Shown: positions 13,535-50,805 of the stretch, piece after piece
Layout: every line of letters begins with the position of its first letter
Position numbering within the stretch: the stretch's first letter is position 1
NCBI GenBank assembly: GCA_036676495.1
Contig: JAKFCT010000045.1
Span: 18,898-82,897 of the forward strand
DNA: 64,000 bases
Direction of reading: 5' to 3'
Source: Candidatus Sericytochromatia bacterium
GTDB taxonomy: Bacteria > Cyanobacteriota > Sericytochromatia > S15B-MN24 > UBA4093
Notes under the pieces: model-generated
What the model saw: only the letters and a program-made list of their open reading frames with translations
Database searches by the model: none
What the model was told of the DNA's origin: nothing
Position numbers and translations under genes: made by a program

Positions 13535-13693
13535 GGCGAGGGCTCCAGGAATCGACGGCGGTGGAACGAGGACTTGCCTGGAGTATAGGATGCTTCCTTG
13601 CTTAGAGCGAGCGTAGTTATCCCCGAGCGGCGGCCCTGAGGCCACTTCAGGCATGCGATCGCGCGCAAACGCTGGCGGTGATGCCGTGGGAGG

Positions 13694-15601
13694 TTATTCG
13701 GGAAGCGGCAGGGTGAACCAGAAGGTGCTGCCTTCTCCGGGCCGGCTTCGAACGCCGATCTGGCCGCCGTGGGCTTCCACGAAGGCTTTGCTGATGGTCA
13801 GGCCCAGGCCGGTCCCGCCGACCCGCCGGGTCGAGCTCATGTCGACCTGGGAGAAGGGCTTGAAGAGCTTGGCGACGGACTCCTCGGAGATGCCGGGCCC
13901 GGTATCCGTCACCTCGGTGAGGATGGTGTCGCCGGCGTGCCGGACGCGCACTTGGATCTCGCCTCCCTGGGGCGTGAATTTGATGGCGTTGTCCACCAGG
14001 TTGGTCAGCACCTGGATCAGGCGGCGGGCGTCGACCATGAGCCGGGGGTGGTCCTGGGCGTCCAGGGTGAGGGAGATCTGCTTCTGATCGCTGAGGGGGC
14101 GCAGGGGAGCGAGCGCCTCCTGGACGATGGGGACGTAGTCGGCGAGATCCGGCTCGATGTGGAGCTTTCCGGCCTGGATCCGGCTCATGTCGAGCAGGTT
14201 GTTGACCAGCTCCAGCATGCGGTCGGCGCCGTTCAAGATCTTGTGAATGTACGATTGCTGCGTCTCGTTGAGGGGGCCGGCCACCTCGTCTTCGAGGATG
14301 CTGGCGAAGCCGGTGATGAAGTTGAGGGGCGTGCGCAGCTCGTGGCTGATGACCGAGAGGAACTCGTCCTTGTAGCGGTCGGCCGTTCGAAGGGCCTCGT
14401 TGGCTTTCTCCAGCTCGGCGCTGCGCTGGGCGATCGCCGCTTCGGCTTGCTTGCGTTCGGTGATGTCCCGGATCACGGCCAGCACCGCCGGTAGATCTTC
14501 GCCCTCCAGCGGGCTGAGGCTGACCTCGATGGGGAACTCCGTGCCGTCCTTGCGCTCGGCGGACAGCTCCAGCCCCGAGCCCATCGGGCGCATGCGCGGG
14601 GCCATGAAGAAGCCCCGCAGGTGATGGCCATGGGCGGCGCGAAAGCGCGCGGGCATGAGGATCTCGACGGGCTGGCCGACTAGCTCCGCTTGGCTGTAGC
14701 CGAAGATCTGCTCCGTCTGGGGGCTGGCCAGCGTGATCCGGCCCTCCTGGTTGACCAGGATGGTGGGATCGGGGGAGGCCTCCAGGATTCTCCGGAACTG
14801 CCGCTCGGCCTTCTTGAGGGTTTCGTAGGCCTGGGAGGTGACGACATCCTCCAGGCGCTGCTTGTAGGAGCTGAGGAGGGCGATCGTGAGGATGATCAGG
14901 GTTCCGGCGGCGATCGCGGCGCCGCCCAGGCTGCCGATTTGCAGGACAGGGGCCTGGGTGGGGGTGGGAGTCACGGAGAAGTGGGCGGCGGCCATGCCGA
15001 CGTAGTGCATCCCGGAAATCGCCACTCCGACCAGCGTGGCGCTGGCGATCCGCAGGCCGCTCCAGACCGTGGAGGCTTGCTCGCGCAGCCGGAAGGTCAG
15101 CCAGAGGGCCGCGATCGAGCCGGCGACGGCGATCACCAGGGAGGCCATGACGAGCCATGGATCATAGCCGGTGACCGTGGGCATGCGCATGGCGGCCATG
15201 CCGACGTAGTGCATCGCGGCGATCCCGAAGCCCATGAGGAAGCCGCCGGCGATGAGGTTCCGGGGGCGGATGCGCGGCCGGCTCGCGACCCAGAGCGCCC
15301 ACCATGACGCGGCGATCGCCACCAGCATCGAGGCGACGGTCAGCGTCACGTCGTAGGTCATCAGGGTCTGACCCACGTGGAAGGCCAGCATGCCGGTGAA
15401 ATGCATCGACCAGATGCCCAGGCCCATGGCGAAGGCCCCTCCCGCCAGCCAGAGCCGGCGCGAGAGCCCCTGGGAAAGCGCGACGCGGCCCGCCATGTCG
15501 AGGGCCGTGTAGCCCGCTCCGATGGCGATCGCCACCGAGAGGATCACCAGGATCGGATCGTAGCCGCTCGCCGCGGCCGCGGCACCACCTGCTGCAGTCA
15601 T
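13694..15601 (-). CDS. MHYT-PAS sensor histidine kinase
   Basis: MHFTGM and two MHYVGM repeats, PAS, SHELRTPL, NAIKF, DTGPG, GTGLGL. Confidence 0.93.
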   Translation of the reverse strand: MTAAGGAAAAASGYDPILVILSVAIAIGAGYTALDMAGRVALSQGLSRRLWLAGGAFAMGLGIWSMHFTGMLAFHVGQTLMTYDVTLTVASMLVAIAASWWALWVASRPRIRPRNLIAGGFLMGFGIAAMHYVGMAAMRMPTVTGYDPWLVMASLVIAVAGSIAALWLTFRLREQASTVWSGLRIASATLVGVAISGMHYVGMAAAHFSVTPTPTQAPVLQIGSLGGAAIAAGTLIILTIALLSSYKQRLEDVVTSQAYETLKKAERQFRRILEASPDPTILVNQEGRITLASPQTEQIFGYSQAELVGQPVEILMPARFRAAHGHHLRGFFMAPRMRPMGSGLELSAERKDGTEFPIEVSLSPLEGEDLPAVLAVIRDITERKQAEAAIAQRSAELEKANEALRTADRYKDEFLSVISHELRTPLNFITGFASILEDEVAGPLNETQQSYIHKILNGADRMLELVNNLLDMSRIQAGKLHIEPDLADYVPIVQEALAPLRPLSDQKQISLTLDAQDHPRLMVDARRLIQVLTNLVDNAIKFTPQGGEIQVRVRHAGDTILTEVTDTGPGISEESVAKLFKPFSQVDMSSTRRVGGTGLGLTISKAFVEAHGGQIGVRSRPGEGSTFWFTLPLPE

Positions 15602-28313: not shown

Positions 28314-28829
28314 TTAGTAGTTCTTGACGCGGAACACGACGATGGCGTTGCCGCCCTTCTTGCCCGTGCCGGCCAAGTCGTACTTCTCGGAGGCGGTGCC
28401 GTCGTTGTCGTAAGTGATCGCGCCGTAGTTGGTCATGTCGGTCGGAACCGCCATGGTACCGGGGGCGATCACTTCGTTGACCTTCTTGGCGAAGTGCGCG
28501 GCGACAAAGGGGATATTGGCAGTCTGCTGCTTGTTCCAGGGAGTGTTGGGGAATGCCGTGAGGTAGTCGCTGGCCGCGCCGATGACCAAGCCCTCGCCGG
28601 CAGCCGCGGCGGTAAGCGAGGCGGGGTAGACGCCTGCGTAGTCAACGGCGTACTGCTCGACAGCCATCTGAATGGTGTGACCGTTCGCCTGAACGCCCGA
28701 GTTCTTGGCCTTGTCCTGGGCGCCCATGAAGTTGGGAACCGCCACCGAAGCCAAGATGCCGATGATGACGACGACTACCAGCAGCTCGATCAGGGTGAAA
28801 CCGCCCTGACCCTTCTTCTTGATTTGCAT
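28314..28829 (-). CDS. type IV pilin / pseudopilin
   Basis: Class III signal KKKGQGG|FTLIELLVVVVIIGILASVAVPNF. Confidence 0.92.
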   Translation of the reverse strand: MQIKKKGQGGFTLIELLVVVVIIGILASVAVPNFMGAQDKAKNSGVQANGHTIQMAVEQYAVDYAGVYPASLTAAAAGEGLVIGAASDYLTAFPNTPWNKQQTANIPFVAAHFAKKVNEVIAPGTMAVPTDMTNYGAITYDNDGTASEKYDLAGTGKKGGNAIVVFRVKNY

Positions 28830-28960: not shown

Positions 28961-29087
28961 CAGCCATGGCGGGGCCTTGTTGGCTAGGATGGCCTAGAAG
29001 TCCGGAGGTTTGGGCGCTTGCGGACCATGGGTATACAAGGCTCACGGGGAAGCATCACCCCGTCCGGCGTGGGCGGAGGGGGCAGGA

Positions 29088-30167
29088 ATGGCCGATATCA
29101 ACATCCGGAACCCTCTGGGTTCCAACGAGATCCGGCCTGGAGGCGGCGCGCCCCAGGCCCCTCGGATCGTGGGCCCGACCGCTCCTTCCATCGAGCAGTC
29201 CGCTTCCCAGCGCCCGCAAGGCCCCAGCTACTTCGGCTACCACAACGACTCCTCCATCGCCGCCCGCTTGGCCCAGCAAGGCGTTCCCCCCAACGCCGTG
29301 AACCTGCGCATCGCCCAGCAGATGCTGCGCTACGGGATTCCCCTGGGCGGAGACGCCCTCGCCCAGCTGCGTCACCTCTGGCAGACGATGGGCGCCACCT
29401 CGCTGGTGGACCTGGAGGCCCTCATGGCGCTTTTCGCTTCGGGACACCCCGCCAGCGCCGAGAACATGTCCGCCATGACGCAACTGCTCTCGGGCGGCCC
29501 CATGAGCCACCTCTTCGCCCGGCTCACCATGATGATGCGCAACCACGGTCAGCTTCCGCAGGCCGCCGAGCTTCAAAACCTCATGACCCAGTTCTGGAAG
29601 CTGGGCAACGGTCCCGATAAACTGGGTGGCGAGCTGGCCCAGTTTGAGCAAATCTTCGCTCGAATGGGTAAATTGGCTTCAGGCGACCTTTCGAGGCTTC
29701 CTCCGGACGTCGCCCAGGGCATGAACCAAATCAAGGACTTCATCGCAGCCCAGCAGCTTCTGCTAAAACAGCCCCAGAACACCGTTTACGTGCCTTTCTT
29801 TCAGTGGCGAGATCAGCAGCCGATGCCCGGTGAGCTGCTCGTCCAGGCGGATCAGGATCCGGCCGCGCAGGCGGCCGGTTACGCGCAGGTGGCGCTGGCG
29901 GTGGACACCCGCAATCTCGGGCGGATGCACCTCGACTTCACGGTCATCCGGGGACATCTGAGCGTGCGGCTGGACGTTCCCGATGCCGGCGTCAAGCAGC
30001 TCTTGGAGCGGGGCCTCGCGGACCTGCGTCACAAGCTGGTGGCTCGGACGCCTTACCAGGTGGCCACCATCCTCTGCAACGAGGTGGGGCAGGCCAAGGC
30101 GGTGAGCGTGCTCTTGCCCAAGCGTCGGGATTTGAGGAAGCTCAGTCGGGCGATCGGAGTGCTGTAG
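29088..30167 (+). CDS. FliK-like hook-length control / substrate-switch protein
   Basis: Pro-rich N-terminus; C-terminal VALAVDTRNLGRMHLDFTV..GHLSVRL pattern of FliK_C; precedes a FlhB-like gene. Confidence 0.6.
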   Translation: MADINIRNPLGSNEIRPGGGAPQAPRIVGPTAPSIEQSASQRPQGPSYFGYHNDSSIAARLAQQGVPPNAVNLRIAQQMLRYGIPLGGDALAQLRHLWQTMGATSLVDLEALMALFASGHPASAENMSAMTQLLSGGPMSHLFARLTMMMRNHGQLPQAAELQNLMTQFWKLGNGPDKLGGELAQFEQIFARMGKLASGDLSRLPPDVAQGMNQIKDFIAAQQLLLKQPQNTVYVPFFQWRDQQPMPGELLVQADQDPAAQAAGYAQVALAVDTRNLGRMHLDFTVIRGHLSVRLDVPDAGVKQLLERGLADLRHKLVARTPYQVATILCNEVGQAKAVSVLLPKRRDLRKLSRAIGVL

Positions 30168-30374
30168 ATGAGCGAGAATCAACCCATTCGCTTGCCAGCC
30201 AGACGCCAATCCCAGGCGCTCACGCCCGCTGCAGCCCAGGCGGTGGCGGAAGTGATGAAGGGGCTGACGGTTCAGGCGGCCATCCCGAGGGAGATGCTGC
30301 CGGCGATCGAGGAGATGCTCGGTTACATCTACGCGATGGATGAGCGGGCCCAGAACGGAAGAGGGAGGAGGTAG
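30168..30374 (+). CDS. minimal FlhB C-terminal-like protein (FlhX/YlqH-like, degenerate)
   Basis: IPREMLPAIEEMLGYIYAMDE resembles FlhB-CC IP.ELY.AVAEVLAYVY; typical position after fliK. Confidence 0.55.
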   Translation: MSENQPIRLPARRQSQALTPAAAQAVAEVMKGLTVQAAIPREMLPAIEEMLGYIYAMDERAQNGRGRR

Positions 30375-30375
30375 G

Positions 30376-31122
30376 ATGCTTCGGGGAATCTACACCGCGG
30401 CCACCGGGATGATGTACCAGCTGGACGCGGTCAACACCATCTCCCATAACCTCGCCAACGTCGAGACCAACGGCTACAAGCGCAAAGAATTGCTTGGCGC
30501 CAGCTTCGGCGACGTGCTGATCGAGATGACCGGTCAGGCGCCCGGCATGCAAGGACTCGTCGGCCAGGGCATCCGCTCGGAGGGCGCGTTCCGCTACGAC
30601 ACGCCGGGCAACCTGGTTGCCACCGGCAGCCCCTTGACCTTCGCGCTGGCCAACCCCGGTTACTTCGTGGTCCAGCGCCAGGATGGCACCCAGCTCATGA
30701 CCCGTGACGGCGACTTCTCGATCGACGAGCAGCGCCGGCTGGTCACCAAGAGCGGAGAGCTGGTGCTTTCCGTTCGCCCGCCCGGAAACCAGCTCGCTCC
30801 CGTCGTGCTCCCCGGAGATCTCGCGGCTTTCAAGGTCTCGCCCGAGGGCAACCTCACGCAGGGCGAGGACTTCCTGGGCAGGCTCGTGGTGGTGAACCCG
30901 CCCGAGGCCCAGATGGCCACCTTCCCGGTCGCCCCCGCCCAGCTCCAGCTGGTGGATGGCGGGGTCAAGCAGGGATTCCTCGAGCACTCCAACGTCAACG
31001 TCGTCACGGAAATGGTCTCGCTCCTGCATGCGAACCGGTCGTTCGGCTTCTCGCAGAAGGTCATCATGGCGCATGACCAGATGCTTCAGAAGGCCGCCAA
31101 CGACCTTGGCCGCATCCAGTAG
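30376..31122 (+). CDS. flgF: flagellar basal-body rod protein FlgF
   Basis: MLRGIYTAATGM, SHNLANVETNGYK, TRDGDF, QGFLEHSNVNVVTEMV. Confidence 0.85.
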   Translation: MLRGIYTAATGMMYQLDAVNTISHNLANVETNGYKRKELLGASFGDVLIEMTGQAPGMQGLVGQGIRSEGAFRYDTPGNLVATGSPLTFALANPGYFVVQRQDGTQLMTRDGDFSIDEQRRLVTKSGELVLSVRPPGNQLAPVVLPGDLAAFKVSPEGNLTQGEDFLGRLVVVNPPEAQMATFPVAPAQLQLVDGGVKQGFLEHSNVNVVTEMVSLLHANRSFGFSQKVIMAHDQMLQKAANDLGRIQ

Positions 31123-31146: not shown

Positions 31147-31914
31147 ATGATTCACGCGATTTGGACCGCCGCTACGGGCATGCAGGCCCAGCAGATGCGC
31201 ATCGACACCATCGCCAACAACTTGTCGAACGTCAACACGACCGCCTACAAGCGCTCGAACGTCGACTTCCAGGATCTCCTGTACCAGACCATCAACCAGC
31301 CCGGCGCGGACACGGCCGGCGTTCAGGTCGGCTTGGGCGTGCGCCCGGTGGCCATCACCAAGCTCTACGAGCAGGGTAACCTCCAGATCACCGAGAACGC
31401 GCTGGATCTGGCCATCGACGGCGAGGGCTTCTTCCAGGTGCGGCGCGCCGACGGCACGGTGGCCTACACCCGGGACGGCTCGTTCAAGCTGGACGCCGAG
31501 GGCAACCTGATCACCTCCACCGGTCTCCAGCTGGAGCCTCAGATCCAGTTCCCGGCCGGTACCACCAACATCTACATCGCCAACAACGGTCAGGTGGCCG
31601 CACAGCTGCCGGGCCAGCCGGAGCAGGCCCCCATCGGTCAGATCAACCTGGCGCGCTTCGCCAACCCGGCGGGTCTCCAGGCGATGGGCAACAACCTCTT
31701 GCTCCAGACGGCCGCTTCCGGCGAGCCCATCATCGGGCCGGCGGATATCGAGGGCATGGGACGGATCCGGCAGGGAGCGCTGGAAACCTCGAACGTGGAG
31801 CTGGTGCGCGAGATGGTCATGATGATCGCCACCCAGAAGGCCTACGACACCTCGTCCAAGGCCATCAACGTGTCGGACAAGATGATGGAGACCGCGAACA
31901 ATCTCCAACGGTAA
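31147..31914 (+). CDS. flgG: flagellar distal rod protein FlgG
   Basis: ANNLSNVNTTAYK, FQDLLYQ, DLAIDGEGFFQV, YTRDGSF, LETSNV. Confidence 0.95.
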   Translation: MIHAIWTAATGMQAQQMRIDTIANNLSNVNTTAYKRSNVDFQDLLYQTINQPGADTAGVQVGLGVRPVAITKLYEQGNLQITENALDLAIDGEGFFQVRRADGTVAYTRDGSFKLDAEGNLITSTGLQLEPQIQFPAGTTNIYIANNGQVAAQLPGQPEQAPIGQINLARFANPAGLQAMGNNLLLQTAASGEPIIGPADIEGMGRIRQGALETSNVELVREMVMMIATQKAYDTSSKAINVSDKMMETANNLQR

Positions 31915-34496: not shown

Positions 34497-34832
34497 GTGG
34501 ACCGTATCAACCCTTATATGAGCGGGTTTCCGCTGAGTCCACTCTCGGCCGCTCCCATGCCCGTCGCTCCGAAGCAGGGGCTCGGCCTGGAGGAGACCCG
34601 CCAGGCGGCCGAGGAGTTCGCCGGTTATCTTTTTGCCCAGGTCTTCAGCCAGATGCGGCCGGAGTCCAATGAGGAGGGGGGATTGTTCTCGGGAGAGAAC
34701 GCCGAAATGTTCATGAGCTTCTTTGATCAGGCTGTTGGCAAGAGCTTCGCAAACTCGGGCTCTGGCAACCAACTGGTGGACCAGTTGGTGCAGCAGCTCG
34801 TTCAAGCTCAGTCGAAAGCCCAGCAGGAGTAG
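34497..34832 (+). CDS. flgJ: FlgJ-like rod-binding protein (no muramidase domain)
   Basis: QAAEEF...F..V..QMR, GGLFSGE..EMF...FDQ, L.DQLVQQL; follows flgI. Confidence 0.8.
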   Translation: MDRINPYMSGFPLSPLSAAPMPVAPKQGLGLEETRQAAEEFAGYLFAQVFSQMRPESNEEGGLFSGENAEMFMSFFDQAVGKSFANSGSGNQLVDQLVQQLVQAQSKAQQE

Positions 34833-34841
34833 GAGCGCACG

Positions 34842-35513
34842 GTGAAGAAGCCTGTCACGTCAGCGAAACGGATGGATGATGCCGCCATCAAGCAATACTT
34901 GCCGATGGTTCGGGCGATCGCCCGTCGCCTCTCCACCAAGCTGCCGCGTCACTACGATGTCGAGGACTTGGTCTCCGACGGCATCATGGGCCTGATGGCC
35001 GCGGCCGATCGCTTCGATCCCGAGCGCGGCGTCAAGTTCGAGACCTTCGCCACCTACTACATCAAGGGGGCCATCCTCGACAACCTGCCCAAGCTGCCCA
35101 CCATCCCCAAGAACCAGCGCCAGCAGGTCGAGGACGAGAACTCCGAAGAGGCGATGCAGAGCTCCCTGACCCAGCTCGCCTACTCGTACATCCTCAGCCT
35201 GGACGCCCCGTCCGGCTCGGACGGCGACGAGTCCTTCTCGCTGCTCAACCAGCTGGGCTCCAGTGACACCATCCAGAACGAGATGGAGCTGGAAGATCTT
35301 CAGCAGACCCTGCGCCTCACCATCGAGCAGTTGCCGGTCCAGGAGCGCACCACGCTGCGCTACTACTACTTCCACAACATGTCGTTCAACGAGATCGGCC
35401 AGAAGCTGGGTCTGTCGGAGTCCTGGGTCAGCCGCATCCACCGCAGGGCGCTGGAGCAGCTCAAGCAGAAGCTGGGCAAGAAGAAGAGCATCGACGACTT
35501 TATTAGTTGGTAG
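34842..35513 (+). CDS. fliA: FliA/WhiG-family sigma-28 factor
   Basis: YLPMVRAIARRL, DVEDLVSDG..GL, FDPERGVKFETFA, EIGQKLGLSESWVSRIH; region 3 shortened. Confidence 0.88.
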   Translation: MKKPVTSAKRMDDAAIKQYLPMVRAIARRLSTKLPRHYDVEDLVSDGIMGLMAAADRFDPERGVKFETFATYYIKGAILDNLPKLPTIPKNQRQQVEDENSEEAMQSSLTQLAYSYILSLDAPSGSDGDESFSLLNQLGSSDTIQNEMELEDLQQTLRLTIEQLPVQERTTLRYYYFHNMSFNEIGQKLGLSESWVSRIHRRALEQLKQKLGKKKSIDDFISW

Positions 35514-35546
35514 CTGCAGACGCTAGTTGGTAGGGGTATCCGTTGC

Positions 35547-35601
35547 CGTCATTCCCGCGGAAGCGGGAATCCACTGGACCCCCGCTTTCGCGGGGGTGAC
35601 G
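35547..35601. repeat. REP-like double palindrome
   Basis: CGTCATTCCCGCGGAAGCGGGAATCCACTGGACCCCCGCTTTCGCGGGGGTGACG; sister copy at 21449. Confidence 0.8.
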
Positions 35602-35622
35602 AGAGAGGAAGGGGGTGTCAGC

Positions 35623-36045
35623 ATGTTCGGAATGGAACTCAAAGGTCTCGAGCGCGCTCTGGACGGCCTGAGCACCCGCTTTTCGGCCCAGGCGAACAAC
35701 GTCGCCAACGTCAACACTCCCAACTATCAGCGCCAGGTGGTCAACTTCGAGGACTCCCTCAAGGCCATCCTGGAAACCGCCAAGGCTGAGGGCTCCCAGG
35801 AGCCATTCGAGAATCCGATGCAGGGCTTCTTCGGGCAGTCGTCGACCGATGCCGCCGCCATGCTCGAGATGTGGTCGCCGACCGTGACCACGGTGGAAAA
35901 CAAAGCTTTCCGCCGCGACGGCAACGGCACCTCCATCGAGTCCGAGATGGCGGACGTGGTCAAGACCGTCCAGCGCTTCAACACGGTGACCACCATGTTG
36001 GCCTCCGAGTATCGGACGCTCAAGTTCGTCATCGACGCGAAGTAA
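35623..36045 (+). CDS. flgB: flagellar rod protein FlgB
   Basis: LERALDGL..R, ANNVANVNTPNYQ, RRDGNGTSIESEM; start MFGM after RBS. Confidence 0.92.
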   Translation: MFGMELKGLERALDGLSTRFSAQANNVANVNTPNYQRQVVNFEDSLKAILETAKAEGSQEPFENPMQGFFGQSSTDAAAMLEMWSPTVTTVENKAFRRDGNGTSIESEMADVVKTVQRFNTVTTMLASEYRTLKFVIDAK

Positions 36046-36055
36046 TTTGTCGCTT

Positions 36056-36079
36056 GGCGGGCGCAGAGGCCCGCCCTAC
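36056..36079. repeat. GTAG-type REP element
   Basis: GGCGGGCGCAGAGGCCCGCCCTAC; second copy at 50806-50829. Confidence 0.7.
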
Positions 36080-36248
36080 TGCCCCTACCTTAACCGTGGC
36101 ACGGGCGTCCCTGCCCGCGCATGTCCGCCTGTGCGTTCTTGCAGCGCGTCCTCGCCTGCGATCACGCTCGGCGTGACCGATGCCACGGCTTCCGACTTCA
36201 GCGCTCGGTATTATGTAACGAGCCCCCTTGCCGGTGCCGCTTGTAGGC

Positions 36249-36263
36249 TTAAGCGGGTTTTAA
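36249..36263. promoter_or_regulatory. TTAA-N7-TTAA motif upstream of flgC-fliE-fliF-flhA
   Basis: TTAAGCGGGTTTTAA, 88 nt before the flgC ATG. Confidence 0.6.
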
Positions 36264-36350
36264 ACCCCAAACCGTGCTACCAAGCCCTTTCCCGGGTATA
36301 GGGGGAGTAGTGTGATTAGCCAGACCGGTCCTTCGACCTGAGGGGGAGTC

Positions 36351-36758
36351 ATGAGCATCTACAACGTCTTCGATGTTTCGGCCTCCGCGCTGACCGCCAA
36401 CCGCTTCTGGTTGGAGGCGATTTCGAATAACATGGCGAACTCCGCCGCCACCCGGACGCCGGACGGTGGGCCCTACCAGCGCCAGATGCCGGTCTTCCAG
36501 ACCCTGCTCGACGAGGCGACGGGCCAGCTCAAGGGCGTGCAGGTCGCCGGCACCCACAAGGACCAGACTCCCGGGCCCTTGGTCTACAAGCCCGGCCATC
36601 CCGACGCGGATCCCAACGGCTTCGTGAGGATGCCCAACGTCAACGTCGTGACCGAGATGGTCGACATGATCGCCGTCAGCCGGGCCTACGACTCCAACGT
36701 GACCATCGCCAACGCGGCCAAGAACATGCACCAGAAGTCCCTCGAGATCGGGCGATAG
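36351..36758 (+). CDS. flgC: flagellar rod protein FlgC
   Basis: SASALTANR, SNNMAN, GGPYQR, YKPGHPDA, MPNVNVVTEMVDMI. Confidence 0.96.
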   Translation: MSIYNVFDVSASALTANRFWLEAISNNMANSAATRTPDGGPYQRQMPVFQTLLDEATGQLKGVQVAGTHKDQTPGPLVYKPGHPDADPNGFVRMPNVNVVTEMVDMIAVSRAYDSNVTIANAAKNMHQKSLEIGR

Positions 36759-36767
36759 GAGGCTCTG

Positions 36768-37151
36768 ATGCTCGTCAACTACCACCAGCTCAACGCCCTG
36801 CCGGGCCGCAACGATCCGCTCGCCGCCTTCAACGAGTTCGAGGACAAGTTCGCCCAGTTCGGCCTTCAAAACAACCCGGAGTTCCCCGGGACGCTCGATC
36901 CGTCGGCGAACGTCCTCAATCCCGGCGAGACCCGGGACTTCGGGGACGTGCTCAAGGACGCCATCCAGGGCGTGAGCGACAAGCACCACCATGCGCTGGA
37001 GCTCGGCGTGGACTTCAGCCTGGGTAAGCCCATCGACCCCCACCAGATCATGCTGGCGGTGACCCAGGCCGAGACCCAGGTTCACCTGACCTCGGCCGTC
37101 ACGACGCGCGTCGCCCAGGGCTATCAGACCCTGATGAACATGCAAATCTAG
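36768..37151 (+). CDS. fliE: hook-basal body protein FliE
   Basis: FGDVLKDAI..V, D.HQIMLA..QAE, YQTLMNMQI C-terminus. Confidence 0.92.
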   Translation: MLVNYHQLNALPGRNDPLAAFNEFEDKFAQFGLQNNPEFPGTLDPSANVLNPGETRDFGDVLKDAIQGVSDKHHHALELGVDFSLGKPIDPHQIMLAVTQAETQVHLTSAVTTRVAQGYQTLMNMQI

Positions 37152-37152
37152 T

Positions 37153-39036
37153 ATGGGAGCGCTTCAGAATCTCCTTCAAAACAAGAAACTGCTGGCCATC
37201 GTCGGGGGAGGCGTTGGCCTCCTCGTCGTGATCATCATCGTCGTGATGATGGCGATGGGCGGCGGCAAGAACAAGGAGAAAGAAGCGGAATCCTGGACCG
37301 TGCTCTTCCGCAAGATGGATGGAGTCTCGGCGGGCGAGGCTGCGGGCAAGCTGCAAGAAGCCAAGATCGAGAGCAAGCTGCTCGAGGACGGGACGGCGAT
37401 CGCCGTCAAGAAGGAGAACGCCGACAAGGCGCGCATCGCGCTCTCCTTGGCCGGCCTGCCCAAGAACGCCGAGCCCGGCTTTGAGATCTTCAACAAGAAG
37501 GACTTCATCTCCACCGACTTCGACAAGAAGATCGCCTTCCTCCGGGCCCTGCGCGGAGAGCTGAAGCGCCTCGTCAAGCAGATCGACGGCGTCGAGGACG
37601 CCGGCGTCATCGTCAACCTTCCCGAGGACACCCTCTTCCAGACCGAGCGCAAGCCCACCACCGCCGCCGTCATGGTCGTCATGCAGCGCGGGCGCTCCCT
37701 CAATCCCATGCAGGTGGAAGGCATCCAGCACCTCGTCGCCTCCTCGGTTCCCGGCCTCTTGACCGACAACGTCACCGTCACGGACAAGGACGGCCACCTC
37801 CTGTCCAGCGGCATGGAAGCCAACGCCGGCAACAAGGACGAGCGCAGCCTGATGCGCGCCCTCAACGAGCAGATGAAGGTCACCCGCCAGATGGAGGCCG
37901 ACCTCGAGAACCGTCTCACCTCGCTGCTGGACAAGCTGGTGGGCTCGGGCAAATCGGTCGTGCGCGTCAAGCTCGAACTGGACTTCAACAAGCGCCAGGT
38001 CATGAACCAGTTGCTGGCCCCCGTGCTCAACAACGGCGAGCCCGTGGCCGTCAACCGCACCCTCGTCGAGGAGCGCAACGGCACCGCCACCAACGGCGGC
38101 GTGCCCGGCGTGGCCTCGAACGTGCCTTCTTACCCGGCCCTGCCGAGCGAGATGGGCGGCGACAAGGAGTCCTACCGCAAGAACCTTCGCGAGCAGCAGG
38201 CCCTCAGCATGGAGCGCCAGCTCGTGAACACGGCCTCCGGCAACATCAAGCGCATGTCCATCGCCGTGCTGCTTCCCGAATCGGTGAAGCCCGACGGAGT
38301 GGAGCGCCTGCGCATGGTCATCGCGACCGCCGCCGGCGCCGACCAGGCCCGCCGCGACCAGGTGACCGTCGAGCGCGTGAAGTTCGACACCTCCCTCGAA
38401 GACGCCCTGAAAAAGGAGCTCGAGGACAAGGACGCCGCCTCCAAGAAGCCCAAGGGCAAGTCGGTCTCATGGGGCCTGGTCTGGGCCGCGGGCGGAGGAC
38501 TCTTGCTGCTCTTCCTGCTCATCGCCTTCATCCGCCGGGCAACCCGCAAGCAAGAGGACCCCTTGGCCGCGCTCACCGCGCTCAGCGGCGACGGCGATTC
38601 GCTGCCGTCGTTCGATCAGTCGGCTTTGGCCGGTATCCCGCCGGGCTTCGGCCAGATGGGCTTCGATCAGGACGCCCTCTCGGGTCAGATGGGTTACGAC
38701 CAGGGACTGCCCGGAGGCGATCCGTACGCCAACATGCAGTACGAGGAGCCTGCCATGATGGCGCCTCAGGCCCAGGCCATGGGCGGTGCGTTCGACTTCC
38801 TCTATGAGGTCGCCCCCGAGCAAGTCTCCGAACTCCTGGGCATGGAGAAGCCCCAGAGCGTCGCCGGCGTGCTGGCGCAGCTCGACCCGGGCTACGCCGA
38901 GCAGGTGCTCAACTACCTCTCGCCGGACATCCAGCAAGAGGTCTTCAACCGCTTGAACTCGGGCGCCTCCTTGCCCGCCATGACCCAGAAGATGCTGAGC
39001 CAGTCCCTGCGGCGGAAGCTCGGCGTCCCGGTCTAG
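37153..39036 (+). CDS. fliF: MS-ring protein FliF fused to a FliG middle-domain-like C-terminus
   Basis: FliF motifs GFEIF, RALRGEL, VNLPE.TLF, LVASSVPGL...NVTVTD..G, two TMs; tail FDFL...PEQV..LL..EKPQSVA.VLA.L resembles FliG_M (EHPQ motif). Confidence 0.9.
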   Translation: MGALQNLLQNKKLLAIVGGGVGLLVVIIIVVMMAMGGGKNKEKEAESWTVLFRKMDGVSAGEAAGKLQEAKIESKLLEDGTAIAVKKENADKARIALSLAGLPKNAEPGFEIFNKKDFISTDFDKKIAFLRALRGELKRLVKQIDGVEDAGVIVNLPEDTLFQTERKPTTAAVMVVMQRGRSLNPMQVEGIQHLVASSVPGLLTDNVTVTDKDGHLLSSGMEANAGNKDERSLMRALNEQMKVTRQMEADLENRLTSLLDKLVGSGKSVVRVKLELDFNKRQVMNQLLAPVLNNGEPVAVNRTLVEERNGTATNGGVPGVASNVPSYPALPSEMGGDKESYRKNLREQQALSMERQLVNTASGNIKRMSIAVLLPESVKPDGVERLRMVIATAAGADQARRDQVTVERVKFDTSLEDALKKELEDKDAASKKPKGKSVSWGLVWAAGGGLLLLFLLIAFIRRATRKQEDPLAALTALSGDGDSLPSFDQSALAGIPPGFGQMGFDQDALSGQMGYDQGLPGGDPYANMQYEEPAMMAPQAQAMGGAFDFLYEVAPEQVSELLGMEKPQSVAGVLAQLDPGYAEQVLNYLSPDIQQEVFNRLNSGASLPAMTQKMLSQSLRRKLGVPV

Positions 39037-39047
39037 GGCGCGGCTAG

Positions 39048-41162
39048 ATGATCGCCCTTCCGGGAGGAAAACAAGGCGGCCTCTTGGGCGACCTCGCCCT
39101 CGCCGCCATTGTCGTCATCATCCTGGGCATCCTCTTGCTGCCCCTGCCGACGATCATCCTGGACTTCCTGATCGTCTGCAACATCGTCATCTCGCTGATC
39201 ATCCTCTTCGTCGCCCTTTACCTGATCAAGCCGCTCGAGTTCGCGAGCTTCCCGTCGATGCTGCTGATCACGGCCTTGTACCGCATCAGCTTGTCGGTGG
39301 CCACCACCCGCTCGATTCTCCTCAACGGCGAGGCGGGACATATCATCGACTCGATGGCGAACATCGTCATGGGCGGCAACTTCCTGGTCGGCATCATCAT
39401 CTTCCTGATCCTGATCCTCGTGAACATGATCGTCATCACCGAGGGCGCCAAGCGCGTCGCCGAGGTGGCGGCGCGCTTCACCCTGGACGCCATGCCCGGT
39501 AAGCAGATGTCCATCGACGCGGACCTGGCCTCGGGCCTGATCGACGGCAACGAGGCCAAGGCCCGCCGCGAGAACCTCGTCCGCGAGTCGAGCTTCTTCG
39601 GCGCCATGGACGGCGCCAACAAGTTCGTGAAGGGCGACGTCATCATGGGCATCGTGCTGATCGTCGTCAACATCATCGGCGGCATCCTGATGGGCATCAT
39701 CTTCAAGCAGATGGACGTCATGCAGGCCATGCAGAAGTACACGCTGCTGACCGTCGGTGACGGCCTGGTGGGCTTGATTCCCTCGATCCTGATCTCGATG
39801 GCCGCCGGTTTCGTCACCACGCGCGCGGCCTCGGAGAACAACCTCTCCATCGACCTCAAGAACCAGGTCTTCGGCTCCCCCAAGACCATGGCCGTCGCGG
39901 CGGTGGTCGTCACCCTGATGGGCTTCATCCCCGGCTTCCCCGCCTACTTCTTCATCCCGCTGGGTCTGGTGCTCGGAGCGGTCGCCTTCATGAGCTTCCG
40001 CAAGTCGATGGCGCCTCCGCCCACCGACGACTACATGATGCCCGGCGACGACATGATGGACGACTACGCCCCCGAGGCCGACGAGGATCTCAAGAACCCC
40101 GAGAACGTCATGAAGATGCTCGGCGTGCCTCCGCTCACCCTGGAGCTGGGGCTCGACCTCGTGCCCCTGGTCGACCCGGGCCTGGGCGGCGAACTCATGG
40201 ATCGGGTGGTCCCCATGCGCGTGAACATCGCCCTCGACATGGGCTTCGTCATGCCGGGCATCCAGTTCAAGGACAACCTCAACCTCCGGCCCAACGCCTA
40301 CCAGATCCTGGTGAAGGGCAACGTGGTGGCCGGGGGCGAACTTCTGGTCGGCTACATGCTGGCGATTCAGCAAGCCATGACCGATACCAGCCAGGAGCTG
40401 GTGGGCTTCCCCACCACCGACCCCGCCTTCGGCAAGCCCGCGGTCTGGGTGGCCGGCGCCGAGGCCCAGCGGGCCGCTCAGCTCGGCTATCTGATCCAGG
40501 ACCCGACCAACGTGCTCACCGCGCACCTCGAAGAGGTGGTGCGGTCGTTCGCCCATGAGATCCTGAGCCGCGAGGAGGTCCAGATGATGCTGAACCGCCT
40601 CAAGGAGAAGGCTCCGGTCACGGTCAAGGATCTGGTGCCCGAGATCCTCTCGCTCTCGGAGGTCCAGCGCGTCCTGCAGGCCCTCATCCGCGAGCGCGTC
40701 AGCATCCGGGACCTCGCTACCATCCTCGAGAAACTGGCCGATTACGGCAAGATGACCAAGGACGTCTTCGTGCTCACCGAGCTGGTCCGCCAGTCGCTGG
40801 GCCGCCAGATCTGCGCGGGCCTGGCCGACGAGGAGGGCCAGATCACGGTCATCACCCTGGATGCCGGGGTCGAGAATACCGTTCAGCAATCGATTCAGCA
40901 GGGCCCCACCGGCCCCAGCCTGGCCATCAACCCGCAGATTGCTCAGCTCGTCTTGGCAAGGCTCGCCTCGGTACATCAGGAAGCCATCTCCAAGGGCTAC
41001 AATCCCTGCCTGATCACCAGCCCCGTCACCCGCCCGCACATCAAGGGCCTCATCGACCGCAACTTCCCGCAGATGGCGGTCATCTCCTTCGCCGAGATCT
41101 CGAGCAAGTACAAGGTCCAGTCGGTCGGCTCGGTTTCGATCGCCGTGGGGGCCGTGTCTTAG
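39048..41162 (+). CDS. flhA: flagellar export gate protein FlhA
   Basis: SFPSMLL, RVAEVAARFTLDAMPGKQMSIDADL, FFGAMDGANKFVKGD, DPAFG.PA.W, ERVSIRDL. Confidence 0.97.
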   Translation: MIALPGGKQGGLLGDLALAAIVVIILGILLLPLPTIILDFLIVCNIVISLIILFVALYLIKPLEFASFPSMLLITALYRISLSVATTRSILLNGEAGHIIDSMANIVMGGNFLVGIIIFLILILVNMIVITEGAKRVAEVAARFTLDAMPGKQMSIDADLASGLIDGNEAKARRENLVRESSFFGAMDGANKFVKGDVIMGIVLIVVNIIGGILMGIIFKQMDVMQAMQKYTLLTVGDGLVGLIPSILISMAAGFVTTRAASENNLSIDLKNQVFGSPKTMAVAAVVVTLMGFIPGFPAYFFIPLGLVLGAVAFMSFRKSMAPPPTDDYMMPGDDMMDDYAPEADEDLKNPENVMKMLGVPPLTLELGLDLVPLVDPGLGGELMDRVVPMRVNIALDMGFVMPGIQFKDNLNLRPNAYQILVKGNVVAGGELLVGYMLAIQQAMTDTSQELVGFPTTDPAFGKPAVWVAGAEAQRAAQLGYLIQDPTNVLTAHLEEVVRSFAHEILSREEVQMMLNRLKEKAPVTVKDLVPEILSLSEVQRVLQALIRERVSIRDLATILEKLADYGKMTKDVFVLTELVRQSLGRQICAGLADEEGQITVITLDAGVENTVQQSIQQGPTGPSLAINPQIAQLVLARLASVHQEAISKGYNPCLITSPVTRPHIKGLIDRNFPQMAVISFAEISSKYKVQSVGSVSIAVGAVS

Positions 41163-42741: not shown

Positions 42742-43836
42742 ATGCGCGAACCTGTGCTTGATGCTTTGAACCCGCTCGATCGGGGGCTGGAGGGTTTCCT
42801 GGCCCGGATGAAGGACCCGGCGTTCGTCGTGGAGGTCGCCTCCGGTCGGATCCTCCTCTGGAACCGCGCGGCTACCCAGCTCTTCGCTTATCCGGCATCC
42901 GAGGGGCACGGCTTGGCGCGGAGGCTTTCGTTGCCGAGAGCGCTGGTCGAGCGGGCGATCGTCTCCCCGTGCCCGGTGGAGTTCGAGAGCGAGCGCCTGG
43001 ATGGCCGCAGGATCTCCCTCGAGGTGACGCTCAGCCGCCTGGAGCAACCCGGCCAAGCCCTGGCCATCCTCCGGGATGCCACCGAGCGCAAATGCTCGGA
43101 CGAAGCGCGCGTGCGCTTCCTGAACGTGCTCTCCCACGAACTCAGGACCCCCATCAGCACGGTGCTGGGCTTTGGCAGCCTCGTGGTCGATGGTCTCGCG
43201 GGACCGCTCAGCGATCAGCAGCGCCATTACCTCCAGCGGCTCTTGGTGGCCGCCGACGATCTTCACGCCCTCGTCAACGATCTGCTCGACCTGGGCCAGC
43301 TTCACGCCGGCCGCTTCGTGATGCATCGTCAGCCCTTCTCCCTCTCGGCGGCCGTCACCGAGGTGATCGAAGGGCTCGCGCCCCAGGCCGAAGCCAAGCG
43401 GCTGACGATCCGCCATGAGGTCCCCGCGGATCTCATGGCCATCCCGGCGGATGGGAAGCGGATCGCCCAGGTCTTGCGGAACCTCCTGGGGAACGCCATC
43501 AAGTACAGCCCCGACGCGGGGAATGTCCGCGTCCGGGGCGGCCTCGAGGAGGGTTGCCTGCTCTGCGAGATCGAGGATACCGGCCCAGGGATCCCCGAAG
43601 AGGCACATGCGCGCCTCTTCGAGCCCTTCGTCAGGCTGGGAGACCCGGAGGTTCCCGGGACCGGCCTCGGGTTGAACATCGCCAAGGCCTTGGTGGAAGC
43701 GCATGACGGGAGGATCGGTGTCCGCCGCCGCTCGGGACCGGGTACGATCTTCTGGTTCACGCTCCCGATCGTCCCGTTGGACGCGCTAACCTGCACCTCA
43801 CGGCAGAGCAAGGGACCCGCAACAAACGCCGGGTAA
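42742..43836 (+). CDS. PAS sensor histidine kinase
   Basis: PAS (LLWNRAA..LF.Y), SHELRTP, NAIKY, DTGPG, GTGLGL. Confidence 0.9.
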   Translation: MREPVLDALNPLDRGLEGFLARMKDPAFVVEVASGRILLWNRAATQLFAYPASEGHGLARRLSLPRALVERAIVSPCPVEFESERLDGRRISLEVTLSRLEQPGQALAILRDATERKCSDEARVRFLNVLSHELRTPISTVLGFGSLVVDGLAGPLSDQQRHYLQRLLVAADDLHALVNDLLDLGQLHAGRFVMHRQPFSLSAAVTEVIEGLAPQAEAKRLTIRHEVPADLMAIPADGKRIAQVLRNLLGNAIKYSPDAGNVRVRGGLEEGCLLCEIEDTGPGIPEEAHARLFEPFVRLGDPEVPGTGLGLNIAKALVEAHDGRIGVRRRSGPGTIFWFTLPIVPLDALTCTSRQSKGPATNAG

Positions 43837-47860: not shown

Positions 47861-48298
47861 TCATGGTAACCGATCCGTGGAGCCTTGTCGCTTCCTCCGC
47901 GCCTTCTCCTCCTCGGGCTCGAGCCGCCGCTCCCAGCGCCGAACCCAGCGATCCAGCACGGGGATGCGCGTCAGGCGACCGTCGTAGGCCAAGACGGCCG
48001 CATAGGTCGCAAGCCCCAGCCCTCCGAGCATGACGCCGCTGATCCCTAGCCCCGTCCCCAGCAGAACCGTCATCCCGACCCAGGGAAGCGGGCCCAAAAG
48101 GGTGCCTGCGAGGCCGAGGGCGATGGAAAGGGTGGTCGTCAGGGCCGTGATGGCGACGGACTGGACGGCATGGAAGCGCAGCAGACGAATGGAGCGAAAT
48201 TGCGGAAGCAGCAGGACCGCCACGGCGACCGGGAAAAGGTAGGAAAGGCTCGCGAAGGCCCGGTAGGGGGCCGCCTGCGGGACCCGGCGCTCCATCAC
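47861..48298 (-). CDS. DUF4870-like membrane protein
   Basis: LSYLF, RFHAVQS, AYDG...RIPVL. Confidence 0.7.
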   Translation of the reverse strand: MMERRVPQAAPYRAFASLSYLFPVAVAVLLLPQFRSIRLLRFHAVQSVAITALTTTLSIALGLAGTLLGPLPWVGMTVLLGTGLGISGVMLGGLGLATYAAVLAYDGRLTRIPVLDRWVRRWERRLEPEEEKARRKRQGSTDRLP

Positions 48299-50301
48299 CG
48301 GCTCCTCATGGTCACGTCCACCGACGCCAAGGTGCCGGCCTTCACCTCCGTCCTGGCTTCCTGATCGGCGTAGGAGCCTTTCTCAAGCTTCAGACGGTAC
48401 GCCCCCGGGACCAGCTCCAGCACCGAGAAGCGGCCGGCCTCGTCCGAGACCGTCAGGACGGTCACGGCCTTGCCCTCCACGACGATCTTGACCCCTTTGA
48501 GCGCCTCGCCGGCGGCGTTGCGGACCTGGCCGCCGATCATCCCGAACCGTCCCACGGGAGCCGCCTCCCGGACCTTGGCGTCCTTGACGGCCTTGCCGCC
48601 GGGCGGCACCCGGACCTCGGCCTTGAGCAGCGTCTTACCGTCCTGCTGAAGCAAGAGCGTGTGGTTTCCCGCCGGAACGTTCGCTAGGGAGTAGTTCCCG
48701 TTCGCATCGCTGGGCGCCCGCAAGGATCCGACCTGGGCGATCGCCCCCGAGACCGGCTTTCCCGCCATGGTGAGGATGCGTCCGCTCACGGTGCCCGGCA
48801 GCGGCGAGAGCGCGATCCGCGGCGTCCCCCCGGAGACCTTGAGGGTGTGGGGGGCGTAGCCCTTGGCCGTGACCGCGACCGTCCACGAGCCGGCCGGCGG
48901 AACTTCCAGGCTGAAGTAGCCATCCCGGTCGGACGTGCCCCGCTCCTTGCCGATCGTGACCGCCGCTCCTCCCAGGACCGACCCGGTCTGGGCATCGACG
49001 ACCTGTCCCTTCAGGCGAACCATCGCCTGGGGCTTGAGCGTCAGCTCGATCGGCGATCCCGCGAGCGTCACCGTCTGCGAGGCGAGCGCACCGGTCTTGT
49101 CCGAGAGCGTCACGGTATAAGAGCCGTTCGCGAGCCCGCCGAAGGTGAAGTAGCCGCTCGGAGTGGTCTTGGTCTTGCGCTCGGCTCCTCCGGGCGCCAC
49201 GAGGCTGACGTTGGCCTCGGCGATCGCCTTGCCCGCCGCATCCACGGCCCGACCGATCAGCGTTCCGCTGGGCATCGAAGGAGGCTTCAGGCTGGTGCCG
49301 GAAGGCTCGGGAGCGCTCGGCACGGCCGGAAGGACGGGCTTGGGCACGGGCGGCTTGAGCACGGGCAGCTCCGCGACGGGAGCCGGCAGCTTCGGCGGCG
49401 GAGGCGGGGGACTGGCGGGTCCCGATGCGACGGCTTGCGTCCCGGCGCTTTGCGTCCCGGCGCTCGACGTCGCGACGCTCGGGGTCTTGGCGACAGGCGC
49501 TTCGACCGCCGGAGCCTTGGCCAAAGGGGGCTTGGCGACGGCGGCCTTGGGAGTCGGCGCCGGCTTGGGGGCGTTGGCGGTCTTGCCCGGCCAGTCGGGA
49601 AGGATGCCGGTGTAGCTCGCCCCGATCGCGAGGCCGCGATCGAAGAGGCTGGTGTTGGGAAGGCCGAGCGAGAACAGGGAGAGGCTCAAGGACGGGAGCG
49701 GGGAGAGGTTGAGCCCGAAGTTGGCGTAGCCGGATTCGCTGCCCTGGGAGCCGATCCATTCGGCGCTGGCGGAGCCGTGCTGCCCCAGCGGGAGCTCCAG
49801 GCCGGCCATGAGGCGGCTATTGAGGGCCAGATCGGCGCGGAAGCCGAGGTGCGCCGAGAAGAGGGTCCAGTCGCGGCCGTTCTGGCGGGTGTTGATGTCC
49901 CGGGTGAGCGTGACGTAGAGGTTCGAGCCCGGGATGCCGCGGTTCGCCGGGACGCCCAGCATGCCCAGGCCGACGGCGACGGCGGTGGGGTTCTCGCGGG
50001 TCGGGCGCTGAAGCTGGTGCTTGAGGCTGAGCATGGGCCAGTCATGGCCCGGGATGCCGTACATGAGGGTGGCTTCGGTGGCCATGAGGCTGAAGCGGCC
50101 GTAACCCGCGATGGCGGTGGGCAGGCCTCCGATGGCGATCAGGCGGGTGCCGAGCTCGACCTCGCGATCGGCCCCCACGCGGCCATCGGGCATGGTGGCG
50201 AGTCCTCGTTCCCCCCAGACTCCGGTGGACTGGGCATGGGCGGGGGAGGCCAGGAGCAGGAAGCTGAGTAGAAACGCGCGGGTCCGCATGGTCGTCCTCA
50301 T
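48295..50301 (-). CDS. secreted protein: YjbH-like beta-barrel N-domain, Pro-rich linker, about four carboxypeptidase-regulatory-like domains
   Basis: Signal AHA|Q; GERGLATMPDG; repeated G.V.D..G.....A.V...T...GYF...L..G.Y.V. Confidence 0.75.
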   Translation of the reverse strand: MRTTMRTRAFLLSFLLLASPAHAQSTGVWGERGLATMPDGRVGADREVELGTRLIAIGGLPTAIAGYGRFSLMATEATLMYGIPGHDWPMLSLKHQLQRPTRENPTAVAVGLGMLGVPANRGIPGSNLYVTLTRDINTRQNGRDWTLFSAHLGFRADLALNSRLMAGLELPLGQHGSASAEWIGSQGSESGYANFGLNLSPLPSLSLSLFSLGLPNTSLFDRGLAIGASYTGILPDWPGKTANAPKPAPTPKAAVAKPPLAKAPAVEAPVAKTPSVATSSAGTQSAGTQAVASGPASPPPPPPKLPAPVAELPVLKPPVPKPVLPAVPSAPEPSGTSLKPPSMPSGTLIGRAVDAAGKAIAEANVSLVAPGGAERKTKTTPSGYFTFGGLANGSYTVTLSDKTGALASQTVTLAGSPIELTLKPQAMVRLKGQVVDAQTGSVLGGAAVTIGKERGTSDRDGYFSLEVPPAGSWTVAVTAKGYAPHTLKVSGGTPRIALSPLPGTVSGRILTMAGKPVSGAIAQVGSLRAPSDANGNYSLANVPAGNHTLLLQQDGKTLLKAEVRVPPGGKAVKDAKVREAAPVGRFGMIGGQVRNAAGEALKGVKIVVEGKAVTVLTVSDEAGRFSVLELVPGAYRLKLEKGSYADQEARTEVKAGTLASVDVTMRSR

Positions 50302-50708
50302 GGGGTGGCCGAGGCGCTCGCCGAGGCGGTGTGGAAGGCGTCCCAGACGGAGTAGCCCTTGGCGGCCACCATCAGGGTGAAGGCGCCCACTCGGGCGTAG
50401 CCCGATCCGGTCCAGGCGTCGATGGCCATGGCGACGGGATAGGTCGCAAGCGTGCCGAAGAGCCACCAGCCCTTGGTCGAGTCCCGGTTGTAGAACTGGC
50501 CGCTCCCCGTGACGGCCAGGGAGAGGCCGGCGGCGATCCAGGGCTGGCGAGGAGGCAGGCCCGAGAAAACCGCCTGCTCCAGGGGAAGCGCGACGGAGAG
50601 GGCCTCGGGCTCGGGCGATGCCGCTCCGGCTGCCGGCGCGAACGCGAGCAGGGACCCGAGCATGAGCAGGCCCGTCATGGCGTGGCGTGGCGTGGAAGGT
50701 TTCTGCAT
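50298..50708 (-). CDS. hypothetical membrane protein (TM2-like)
   Basis: Signal peptide; PWIAAGLSLAVTGSGQFYN, YSVWDAF. Confidence 0.7.
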   Translation of the reverse strand: MQKPSTPRHAMTGLLMLGSLLAFAPAAGAASPEPEALSVALPLEQAVFSGLPPRQPWIAAGLSLAVTGSGQFYNRDSTKGWWLFGTLATYPVAMAIDAWTGSGYARVGAFTLMVAAKGYSVWDAFHTASASASATP

Positions 50709-50805
50709 GGTCCCTTTCCCGTCCGAAGTGCCGTCCTGTCTCGGTTTTGGCCTTCGATTCCAGTGTAGCTCCCCGGCCTGGCCCGCGCAAGCGAGGTTAT
50801 GCAGT

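Follow-up and report, generated by a model that had tools for sequence, protein, structure and literature searches.

We analysed a 64,000-nt stretch of DNA (the window) from the genome of a Candidatus Sericytochromatia bacterium. On its plus strand lies a gene, fliF::fliG_M, whose product carries the MS-ring protein FliF and the middle domain of the rotor protein FliG (FliG_M) on one polypeptide. G000 denotes the source genome, G001 its congener, and f1-f7 the families within the class. The gene is organized as follows.

37153..39036, plus strand: fliF::fliG_M gene, 627 aa, with the Pfam domains YscJ_FliF, YscJ_FliF_C and FliG_M; stop codon at 39034-39036
37189..37245, plus strand: transmembrane (TM) helix 1, residues 13-31 (Kyte-Doolittle, window 19, score 3.08)
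37288..38385, plus strand: periplasmic MS-ring part (YscJ_FliF, residues 46-218; YscJ_FliF_C, residues 259-411)
38476..38532, plus strand: TM helix 2, residues 442-460 (hydropathy 2.56)
38539..38787, plus strand: low-complexity linker of 83 aa, residues 463-545, rich in G/A/Q/D/P/M by composition
38788..39033, plus strand: FliG middle-domain tail, residues 546-627 (82 aa), recognized by Pfam, PDB profile and fold

In canonical motors FliG_N holds FliF, FliG_M, an armadillo-type domain, holds FliM, and FliG_C meets MotA through its charged torque helix. The fused protein has both periplasmic domains of FliF (YscJ_FliF, E 2.8e-52, 177.6 bits; YscJ_FliF_C, E 1.9e-23, 83.9 bits), flanked by two TM helices according to Pfam and hydropathy. 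The linker (G13 A12 Q9 D8 P8 L7 M6) varies in length and sequence among 14 homologues, and the part of it included in an AlphaFold2 model has a pLDDT below 50. An earlier reading of the DNA from its letters and open frames, here called the sequence-only reading, had described a G/Q/M/D/P-rich linker of about 90 aa and a FliG_M tail from about 38791, which agrees well with the 83 aa found and with the actual tail start at F546, base 38788. The tail reads FDFLYEVAPEQV...MEKPQSVAGVLAQLDPGYAEQVLNYLSPDIQQEVFNRL...LRRKLGVPV, and the open frame stops four residues past the end of the FliG_M match. The canonical FliF of the same genome (528 aa, contig C38) ends ...SQPDEVARLVRSWMLEDE / ...PDEVARLVRSWMLEDE, the latter being what we take to be the FliG_N-binding part. 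The fused FliF has no such end, so that the usual short FliG-binding helices are gone, as had been proposed. FliG_N (PF14842) and FliG_C (PF01706), also said to be missing, give no Pfam match in the fused protein at E <= 0.01.

The tail matches Pfam FliG_M over residues 555-623, corresponding to profile positions 1-69 of 76, with an E-value of 8.6e-11 and 42.4 bits against a cut-off of 25, while MgtE_N reaches 17 bits, under its cut-off of 25.9. When a profile built from eight tails of different genomes was compared with the PDB, FliG chains were the top 11 of 14 matches (1lkv, E 2.7e-11), and there was no MgtE chain among the 14. With hhalign the tail aligns to residues 106-187 of the organism's own FliG at a probability of 96.3%. 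The AlphaFold2 model of the tail (mean pLDDT 82.9) has six helices, and in a Foldseek search with this model ranks 1-17 are FliG middle domains. Isolated FliG_M chains crystallized with FliM (4fq0_C, 3soh_B and 4qrm_D) superpose with target-normalized TM-scores of 0.80-0.84 and an rmsd of 1.7-2.2 Å, and the list includes the canonical-motor structures 5tdy, 4fhr and 8ucs. MgtE first appears at rank 18 with an rmsd of at least 6.6 Å, and FliG_C and FliG_N at ranks 21-23. A tail that is only MgtE_N-like, which the sequence-only reading had named as a possible refutation, is ruled out by the sub-threshold Pfam score, the PDB profile matches and the Foldseek order. Judged by sequence and predicted fold, the tail is a true FliG_M.

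The EHPQR motif of FliG_M is the FliM contact. In the tail, EKPQ (E565-K566-P567-Q568) and R600 align to the EHPQ...R of Thermotoga maritima FliG and of the FliG of the source genome, so that the predicted change from EHPQ to EKPQ is real, with lysine where the organism's own FliG has histidine. An alignment of 14 homologues shows no variation at E565 and R600, retains P567 in at least 90% and has lysine or arginine in all 14 at the position of the histidine. In one genome a weaker second FliG_M-like match lies directly downstream of the fused fliF (G017:C161:80199-80462, E 2.2e-7, in a 216-aa frame).

A search for homologous proteins returned 16, of which 15 are 621-655 aa long with all three Pfam domains; the named ones are annotated as FliF of Candidatus Sericytochromatia or Tanganyikabacteria. 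A search of whole genomes detected the tail in 43 of the 46 from the same class, 42 times in open frames of 603-669 aa, and in none of 14 other sampled genomes of the phylum. Those three of the class that lack it have a completeness of 73-87% and are broken into 610-1240 contigs. Among 1.84 billion representative proteins there are 190 matches to the tail at E <= 0.001 and 14 at E <= 1e-10. The latter are all C-terminal, in proteins of 612-778 aa or in shorter fragments; the remaining listed matches are mostly in proteins of FliG length, near residues 100-200. Between G000 and G001, dN/dS is 0.058 for the tail, 0.093 for the ring part (residues 30-436) and 0.177 for the linker. The machine to which the fused protein belongs, described below as the second system, is by the genomic evidence characteristic of one bacterial class.

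There is practically no chance that an assembly artefact, a frameshift or a decaying pseudogene has joined fliF to a fliG remnant. The source genome is indeed a metagenome-assembled draft (106 contigs, 92% complete, 6.7% contamination), but the same open frame occurs in 42 other genomes, the genomes with the fused gene span a GC content of about 26% to 66%, and the low dN/dS of the tail also speaks against it. Contigs of 640 bases from sequencing run X1, which may be the source sample and hence not independent, run uninterrupted across 38370-39009, and parts of the junction are also covered by pieces from a second study (X2). The runs were compared as assembled contigs, whose read depth and gaps carry no information. 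One 249-base contig of an RNA run (X18) aligns at 37705-37952 with six differences, which does not show transcription. The survey of domain architecture across genomes together with the tail dN/dS thus bears out the view that the fusion is natural, and places it class-wide.

The source genome has two flagellar gene sets. The canonical one, on contig C38, comprises FlgB, FlgC, FliE, the 528-aa FliF, FliG, FliH, FliI, FliK, FlgD and FlgE, and the same contig additionally carries FliM, FliN/Y, MotA, FlhB, FlhA and a sigma factor. Its FliG (336 aa, with N, M and C domains) adjoins the canonical fliF, and therefore the organism has another MS ring and rotor besides the fused one. The GC content of C38 is 66.8% and that of the window contig 65.9%, in a genome ranging from 61 to 69%. 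A separate intact fliG co-conserved with the fusion would, according to the sequence-only reading, have counted against repurposing. This objection holds in part: such a gene does exist, in the source genome and in 40 of 47 class genomes, but it adjoins a second, canonical fliF in a separate gene set, and family f7 is without FliG_C. A 152-aa open frame with only the C-terminal domain of FlhB (G000:C38:37872-38102) also lies in the canonical cluster.

The fused gene belongs to the second set, of which the window holds the following further genes.

29010..30167, plus strand: FliK-like hook-length/switch protein (Pfam Flg_hook, 35.2 bits; HpaP, 21.5 bits, below its cut-off)
30340-31122 and 31147-31914, plus strand: FlgF-like and FlgG-like distal rod genes (Flg_bb_rod, LlgE_F_G_D1, Flg_bbr_C), with paralogues on contig C23
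31931-32659, 32656-33339 and 33349-34473, plus strand: flgA, flgH and flgI (ChapFlgA, FlgH, and FlgI with E 1.5e-120)
34497-34832, plus strand: rod-binding (FlgJ-like) protein (Pfam Rod-binding)
34842-35513, plus strand: sigma-70-family factor (Pfam Sigma70_r2 and r4)
35527-36045, 36351-36758 and 36768-37151, plus strand: flgB, flgC and fliE (Pfam)
36047-36301, plus strand: orf84, no Pfam family
39048..41162, plus strand: flhA of the second system, 704 aa (FHIPEP, E 6.6e-237), 42% identical to the FlhA on C38
41209..42600, plus strand: orf463, no Pfam match, two hydrophobic segments; membership uncertain, as it is not beside flhA in the f7 genome G030

The rod genes (FlgB, C, F and G), FliE and FlgA/H/I of the second system are thus all in the window, and G030 has the same set, with the pair of rod-binding protein and sigma factor again after flgI. 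No second copy of flgA, flgH or flgI was found in the source genome by tblastn. FlgI occurs in 44 of 47 class genomes, as one gene in each, and in 33 of the 47 the tail and flgI share a contig and are no more than 6 kb apart. The second system has its own gate and ATPase set (FlhA, FlhB, FliP/Q/R, FliH/I). Contig C34 carries genes for FlgD-like, FlgE-like and FliM-like (299 aa) proteins, a 463-aa SpoA protein, FliN, FliO-P, FliQ and FliR, where FliO-P and FliR were recognized by Pfam and FliQ by its position, with a Pfam match on the G030 ortholog. FliH2 is present, FliI2 falls partly at the end of contig C27 and partly at the end of C48, and a second FlhB lies on C42. FliO and FliP form one polypeptide both in G000 (L027 on C34, 10733-12019, minus strand, 428 aa) and in G030 (L029, 14771-16012, minus strand, 413 aa), and a 98-aa protein consisting of the FlhB C-terminal domain only (L061, 10519-10815, plus strand) heads the flgF-flgI cluster of G030.

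Around the cluster in the window we noted, immediately upstream, a protein of 171 aa that bears a prepilin N-methylation motif (28314-28829, minus strand), and an 831-aa protein with repeated CarboxypepD_reg domains (48295-50790, minus strand). Possible regulators are a CHASE-PAS-GGDEF cyclase and an MHYT-PAS histidine kinase upstream (11444-15601, minus strand) and a PAS histidine kinase just downstream (42742-43836, plus strand).

Family f7, represented by six genomes that are 74-98% complete, one of them in 3 contigs, has the fused system alone. FliG_C and Flagellin_N are each found in 0 of 6 f7 genomes, and MotA_N in 0 of the 3 searched. The fused FliF is present in five of the six and is the sole FliF in all five; FlgI and the FliM-like gene are each present in 5/6, a single type III secretion system (T3SS) ATPase in 5/5 and a full-length FlhB in 4/4. 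The FliM-like gene is the whole FliM-type complement of the family. In G030 the locus order is FlgB-FlgC-FliE-fused FliF-FlhA, and other loci hold FliM-like, a 674-aa SpoA protein, FliN, FliO-P, FliQ and FliR, as well as FlgF-G-A-H-I, the rod-binding protein and the sigma factor. The cluster order is kept although these loci (L061-L063) have a GC content of 22-28%, compared to about 66% in G000, so the architecture has survived great divergence. Because f7 keeps the fused system without FliG_C or flagellin genes, the system has a use that needs no torque domain, and it would thus work without canonical FliG, FliM or flagellin.

An FlgE-like query gave 12-21 matches per f7 genome, some of them in frames of 1552-1954 aa (for example G046:C5:81101-81439 and G036:C251:5245-5538), and one 510-aa protein has the FlgE/F/G D1 and C-terminal domains. 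The matches suggest that rod/hook-type axial proteins have multiplied as a family in these genomes, which are devoid of flagellin.

The candidate partner of the tail is the FliM-like protein, which is encoded by 45 of 47 class genomes. Against PDB chains, a profile of this protein matches FliN at E 1.8e-10. In a complex prediction with residues 18-218 of this protein and the tail (12-96), the score was 0.59 and that of the best control 0.02; the runs share at least 96% of their contacts, and the pLDDT of the partner is at least 85. The mark that the prediction passes is reached by 58 of 80 solved complexes and by 2 of 110 mismatched pairs, and among those passing it scores of 0.60 or less belong to 7 of the 80 solved complexes and to both mismatches. 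The result was graded as weak support. Between the FliM-like gene and fliN stands the SpoA protein, which has a FliMN_C domain at its C-terminus and at least six hydrophobic segments (463 aa in G000, L027 on C34, 12373-13764, minus strand; 674 aa in G030, L029, 16433-18457, minus strand). All of 24 loci have it downstream of the FliM-like gene, and it would be a membrane-anchored relative of FliN. In families f1 and f2, and not in the others, the FliM-like proteins start with M(S/T)E(D/E)LN(S/P)(L/I)..., which faintly resembles the CheY-binding start of canonical FliM.

Outside the class, FliG_C was found in 2 of 154 genomes (G198 and G200, both of the sister class) in a 201-genome sample of the phylum. 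Both have FlgI and two unfused FliFs. The second cluster of G200 (L068 on C5, 4385-11636, minus strand) encodes FliF' (543 aa), a 326-aa protein, FliH, FlhA and FliI. At the fliG position, the 326-aa protein has no Pfam family and no PDB match, and hhalign relates it to the tail at a probability of 2%; in the Atlas it falls into Melainabacteria-only clusters, where FliG_C/FliG_M leads reach only 0.75-0.76. A second system may therefore predate the fusion.

Taken together, we consider it probable that the product of fliF::fliG_M forms the MS ring of a second type III export machine of flagellar descent, in which FliG_M docks a FliM-like protein and which does not rotate in the canonical way. 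FliG would have been cut down to its FliM-binding middle domain and attached to the cytoplasmic end of FliF by a flexible linker some 80 aa long, so that the FliF-FliG link became covalent, the domain holding FliM was kept and the domain meeting MotA was lost. Each ring subunit would carry one FliG_M, which would dock the divergent FliM-like protein directly to the MS ring, with FliN and the membrane-anchored SpoA protein attached through the FliM-like protein. The docked complex could give the export gate (FlhA/B, FliOPQR, FliHI) its cytoplasmic platform. As the cargo of this machine we infer rod- and hook-type proteins, which would be exported through the rod and the L/P-ring channel.

Docking of the FliM-like protein is the most likely role of the tail, and of the parts of this reading it is the one that we hold with most confidence. 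That the FliG_M fold has been put to another use, with the tail binding a regulator, an ATPase complex or FlhA instead of a FliM-type protein, seems quite improbable. The replacement of the histidine in all 14 homologues and the weak complex-prediction score would fit such a use, but the motif for FliM contact retains its E, P and R, the FliM-like gene co-occurs with the fusion almost throughout the class, and the best structural matches of the tail include the FliG_M chains crystallized with FliM. Docking itself has points against it: the middle domain of the FliM-like protein matches solved FliM chains at E about 0.015, the source genome has no Pfam FliM match for it, and, since FliG_M-FliM complexes have already been solved, the pass in the complex prediction may be memory. 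Slightly more improbable still is a single hybrid flagellum, in which the fused ring depends on the canonical system and the tail recruits canonical FliM/FliN or stacks with canonical FliG. The canonical fliG is widespread in the class, and flgA, flgH and flgI are found only in the cluster of the second system, which makes part-sharing plausible; that the canonical system lacks its own flgH and flgI, so that the gene sets may share parts, weighs to this extent against two separate machines. On the other hand, f7 keeps an intact fused FliF without FliG_C or flagellin and with the FliM-like gene only, and the second system owns FlhA, FlhB, FliOPQR, FliHI, FliM-like and FliN, that is, a second complete export apparatus.

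Does the fused ring rotate? Lacking the C-terminal domain of FliG, the ring would most likely not turn like a canonical motor, although the evidence makes the lack of canonical rotation only somewhat likely. The sequence-only reading went further in stating that the ring could not be driven by stators; this was an inference, as pairs of MotA_ExbB and MotB_plug occur in all five genomes searched, including three of f7, and a stator could still act on another rotor surface. Several further observations weigh against a static ring. At a distance of 3 kb from fliH2, contig C27 of the source genome carries a MotA/MotB pair that matches MotA_N strongly. The second system keeps its L and P rings, and in known motors these serve as a bushing. 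Many f1, f4 and f6 genomes have extra FliG_C-bearing proteins (about 360-750 aa) that could serve in trans; the frames are 615-758 aa in f1 and f4 and 358-415 aa in f6, and some f5 genomes have them too. Completeness of the f7 genomes is 74-98%, and the Pfam model could miss a FliG_C that has diverged strongly.

In one of the genomes a third module (L034, G008:C29, 5992-11462) encodes a 687-aa protein followed by a FlgO-like protein, MotA_ExbB and MotB; the 687-aa protein has FliG_M and FliG_C, with a weak FliG_N, in its C-terminal half. The MotA_ExbB and MotB_plug pair of G030 adjoins a Flp pilin gene.

We consider it unlikely, though less so than the other alternatives, that the second system is a working rotary motor that receives torque by a route other than FliG_C, for instance from a MotA/MotB-like pair whose target would be the FliM-like protein, the SpoA protein in the membrane or a separately encoded long FliG-like protein, so that the fusion would only hard-wire a 1:1 ratio of FliF to FliG_M. 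The stator-type pairs in f7 genomes without FliG_C, the MotA/MotB pair near fliH2, the grouping of the 687-aa FliG-like protein with FlgO-like, MotA and MotB proteins, and the retained L and P rings all favor a motor. However, f7 has neither FliG_C nor MotA_N in the genomes searched, and without flagellin it has no canonical filament to turn, while the hydrophobic segments of the SpoA protein would tether the cytoplasmic complex to the membrane. The MotA_N-type pair was not counted as a component of the second system, as it is near fliH2 in G000 but has no flagellar neighbors in G008. No extra long FliG_C-bearing frames were found in G000 or in the searched genomes of f2, f3 and f7, all of which are fusion-bearing families, which rules out the long FliG-like proteins as an obligate FliG_C in trans.

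It is possible, and we suggest it tentatively, that the fused FliF marks an independent second route on which a flagellum turned into a non-rotary machine of the type III secretion or appendage kind, originating from an ancient second flagellar system. This system, apparently unfused in the sister class, would have shed FliG_N and FliG_C and covalently joined its FliM-docking domain with the MS ring. Its SpoA platform would be tethered to the membrane, the rod and L/P rings would form an outer-membrane conduit, and hook/rod-type proteins, the family expanded in f7, would be exported instead of a flagellin filament.

FliG both anchors the C ring to the MS ring and takes up the torque of the stators. 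Here, nature would have separated these two jobs class-wide by keeping the C-ring-holding domain on FliF and dropping the torque domain. The fused protein may serve as a natural minimal adaptor for testing what FliG_M alone can do, and the second system could be used to ask whether a basal body with rod, L/P rings and hook works without canonical torque input. It may also offer a living parallel to an inferred step in the origin of the injectisome, in which a flagellar export machine gave up rotation. Because databases label the fused proteins plain FliF, genome-based calls of flagellar motility could count the second system as a flagellum.

The literature searched, which did not extend to supplementary files and subscription journals, holds no account of a natural FliF-FliG_M protein or of the flagellar systems of this class. 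Like the canonical rotor of Salmonella and Thermotoga (8umd, 8wiw, 9n49, 4fhr, 4fq0, 5tdy), the fused protein has the FliF ring domains with two TM helices and a FliG_M in which E..PQ...R aligns to the FliM-contact motif, and its system has FliM/FliN-type partners. Unlike that rotor, it has a covalent linker in place of the FliG_N-binding helices and FliG_N, no FliG_C, and lysine or arginine for the histidine. The injectisome has a YscJ/FliF-family ring (SctJ/SctD) and an SctK-SctQ SpoA platform without a FliG torque ring, and is presumed to be static. The second system resembles it in that a YscJ/FliF-family ring would be coupled to a FliM/FliN-type cytoplasmic platform without a FliG torque ring. 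It differs in keeping the flagellar rod, FliE, FlgA/H/I and a FliK-like protein, and in coupling the platform via a FliG_M remnant instead of SctD/SctK (no search was made for the secretin SctC, SctD or the needle protein SctF).

Engineered full-length FliF-FliG fusions of Salmonella and Vibrio form rings, according to the available text of the two reports (PMC6079021, PMC10941966), and likewise have FliF and FliG on one polypeptide at a fixed 1:1 ratio. As described there, those fusions are laboratory-made and contain the whole FliG including FliG_C, whereas the present one is natural, class-wide and limited to FliG_M. Lysobacter enzymogenes OH11, which bears no flagella, possesses a flagellar T3SS-like system with rod, L/P-ring, MS-ring, fliN and hook genes and no functional fliC; fliG and fliM were reported as not found, with divergent versions not ruled out by the authors (PMC7688988, in the text available). 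Both cases thus have in common that a flagellar export apparatus is kept without a functional fliC. The available text of that report mentions no FliF-FliG_M fusion, while the present system retains a FliM-like protein and has FliG_M joined to FliF; and unlike the system of OH11 as described there, the second system mostly coexists with a canonical flagellum.

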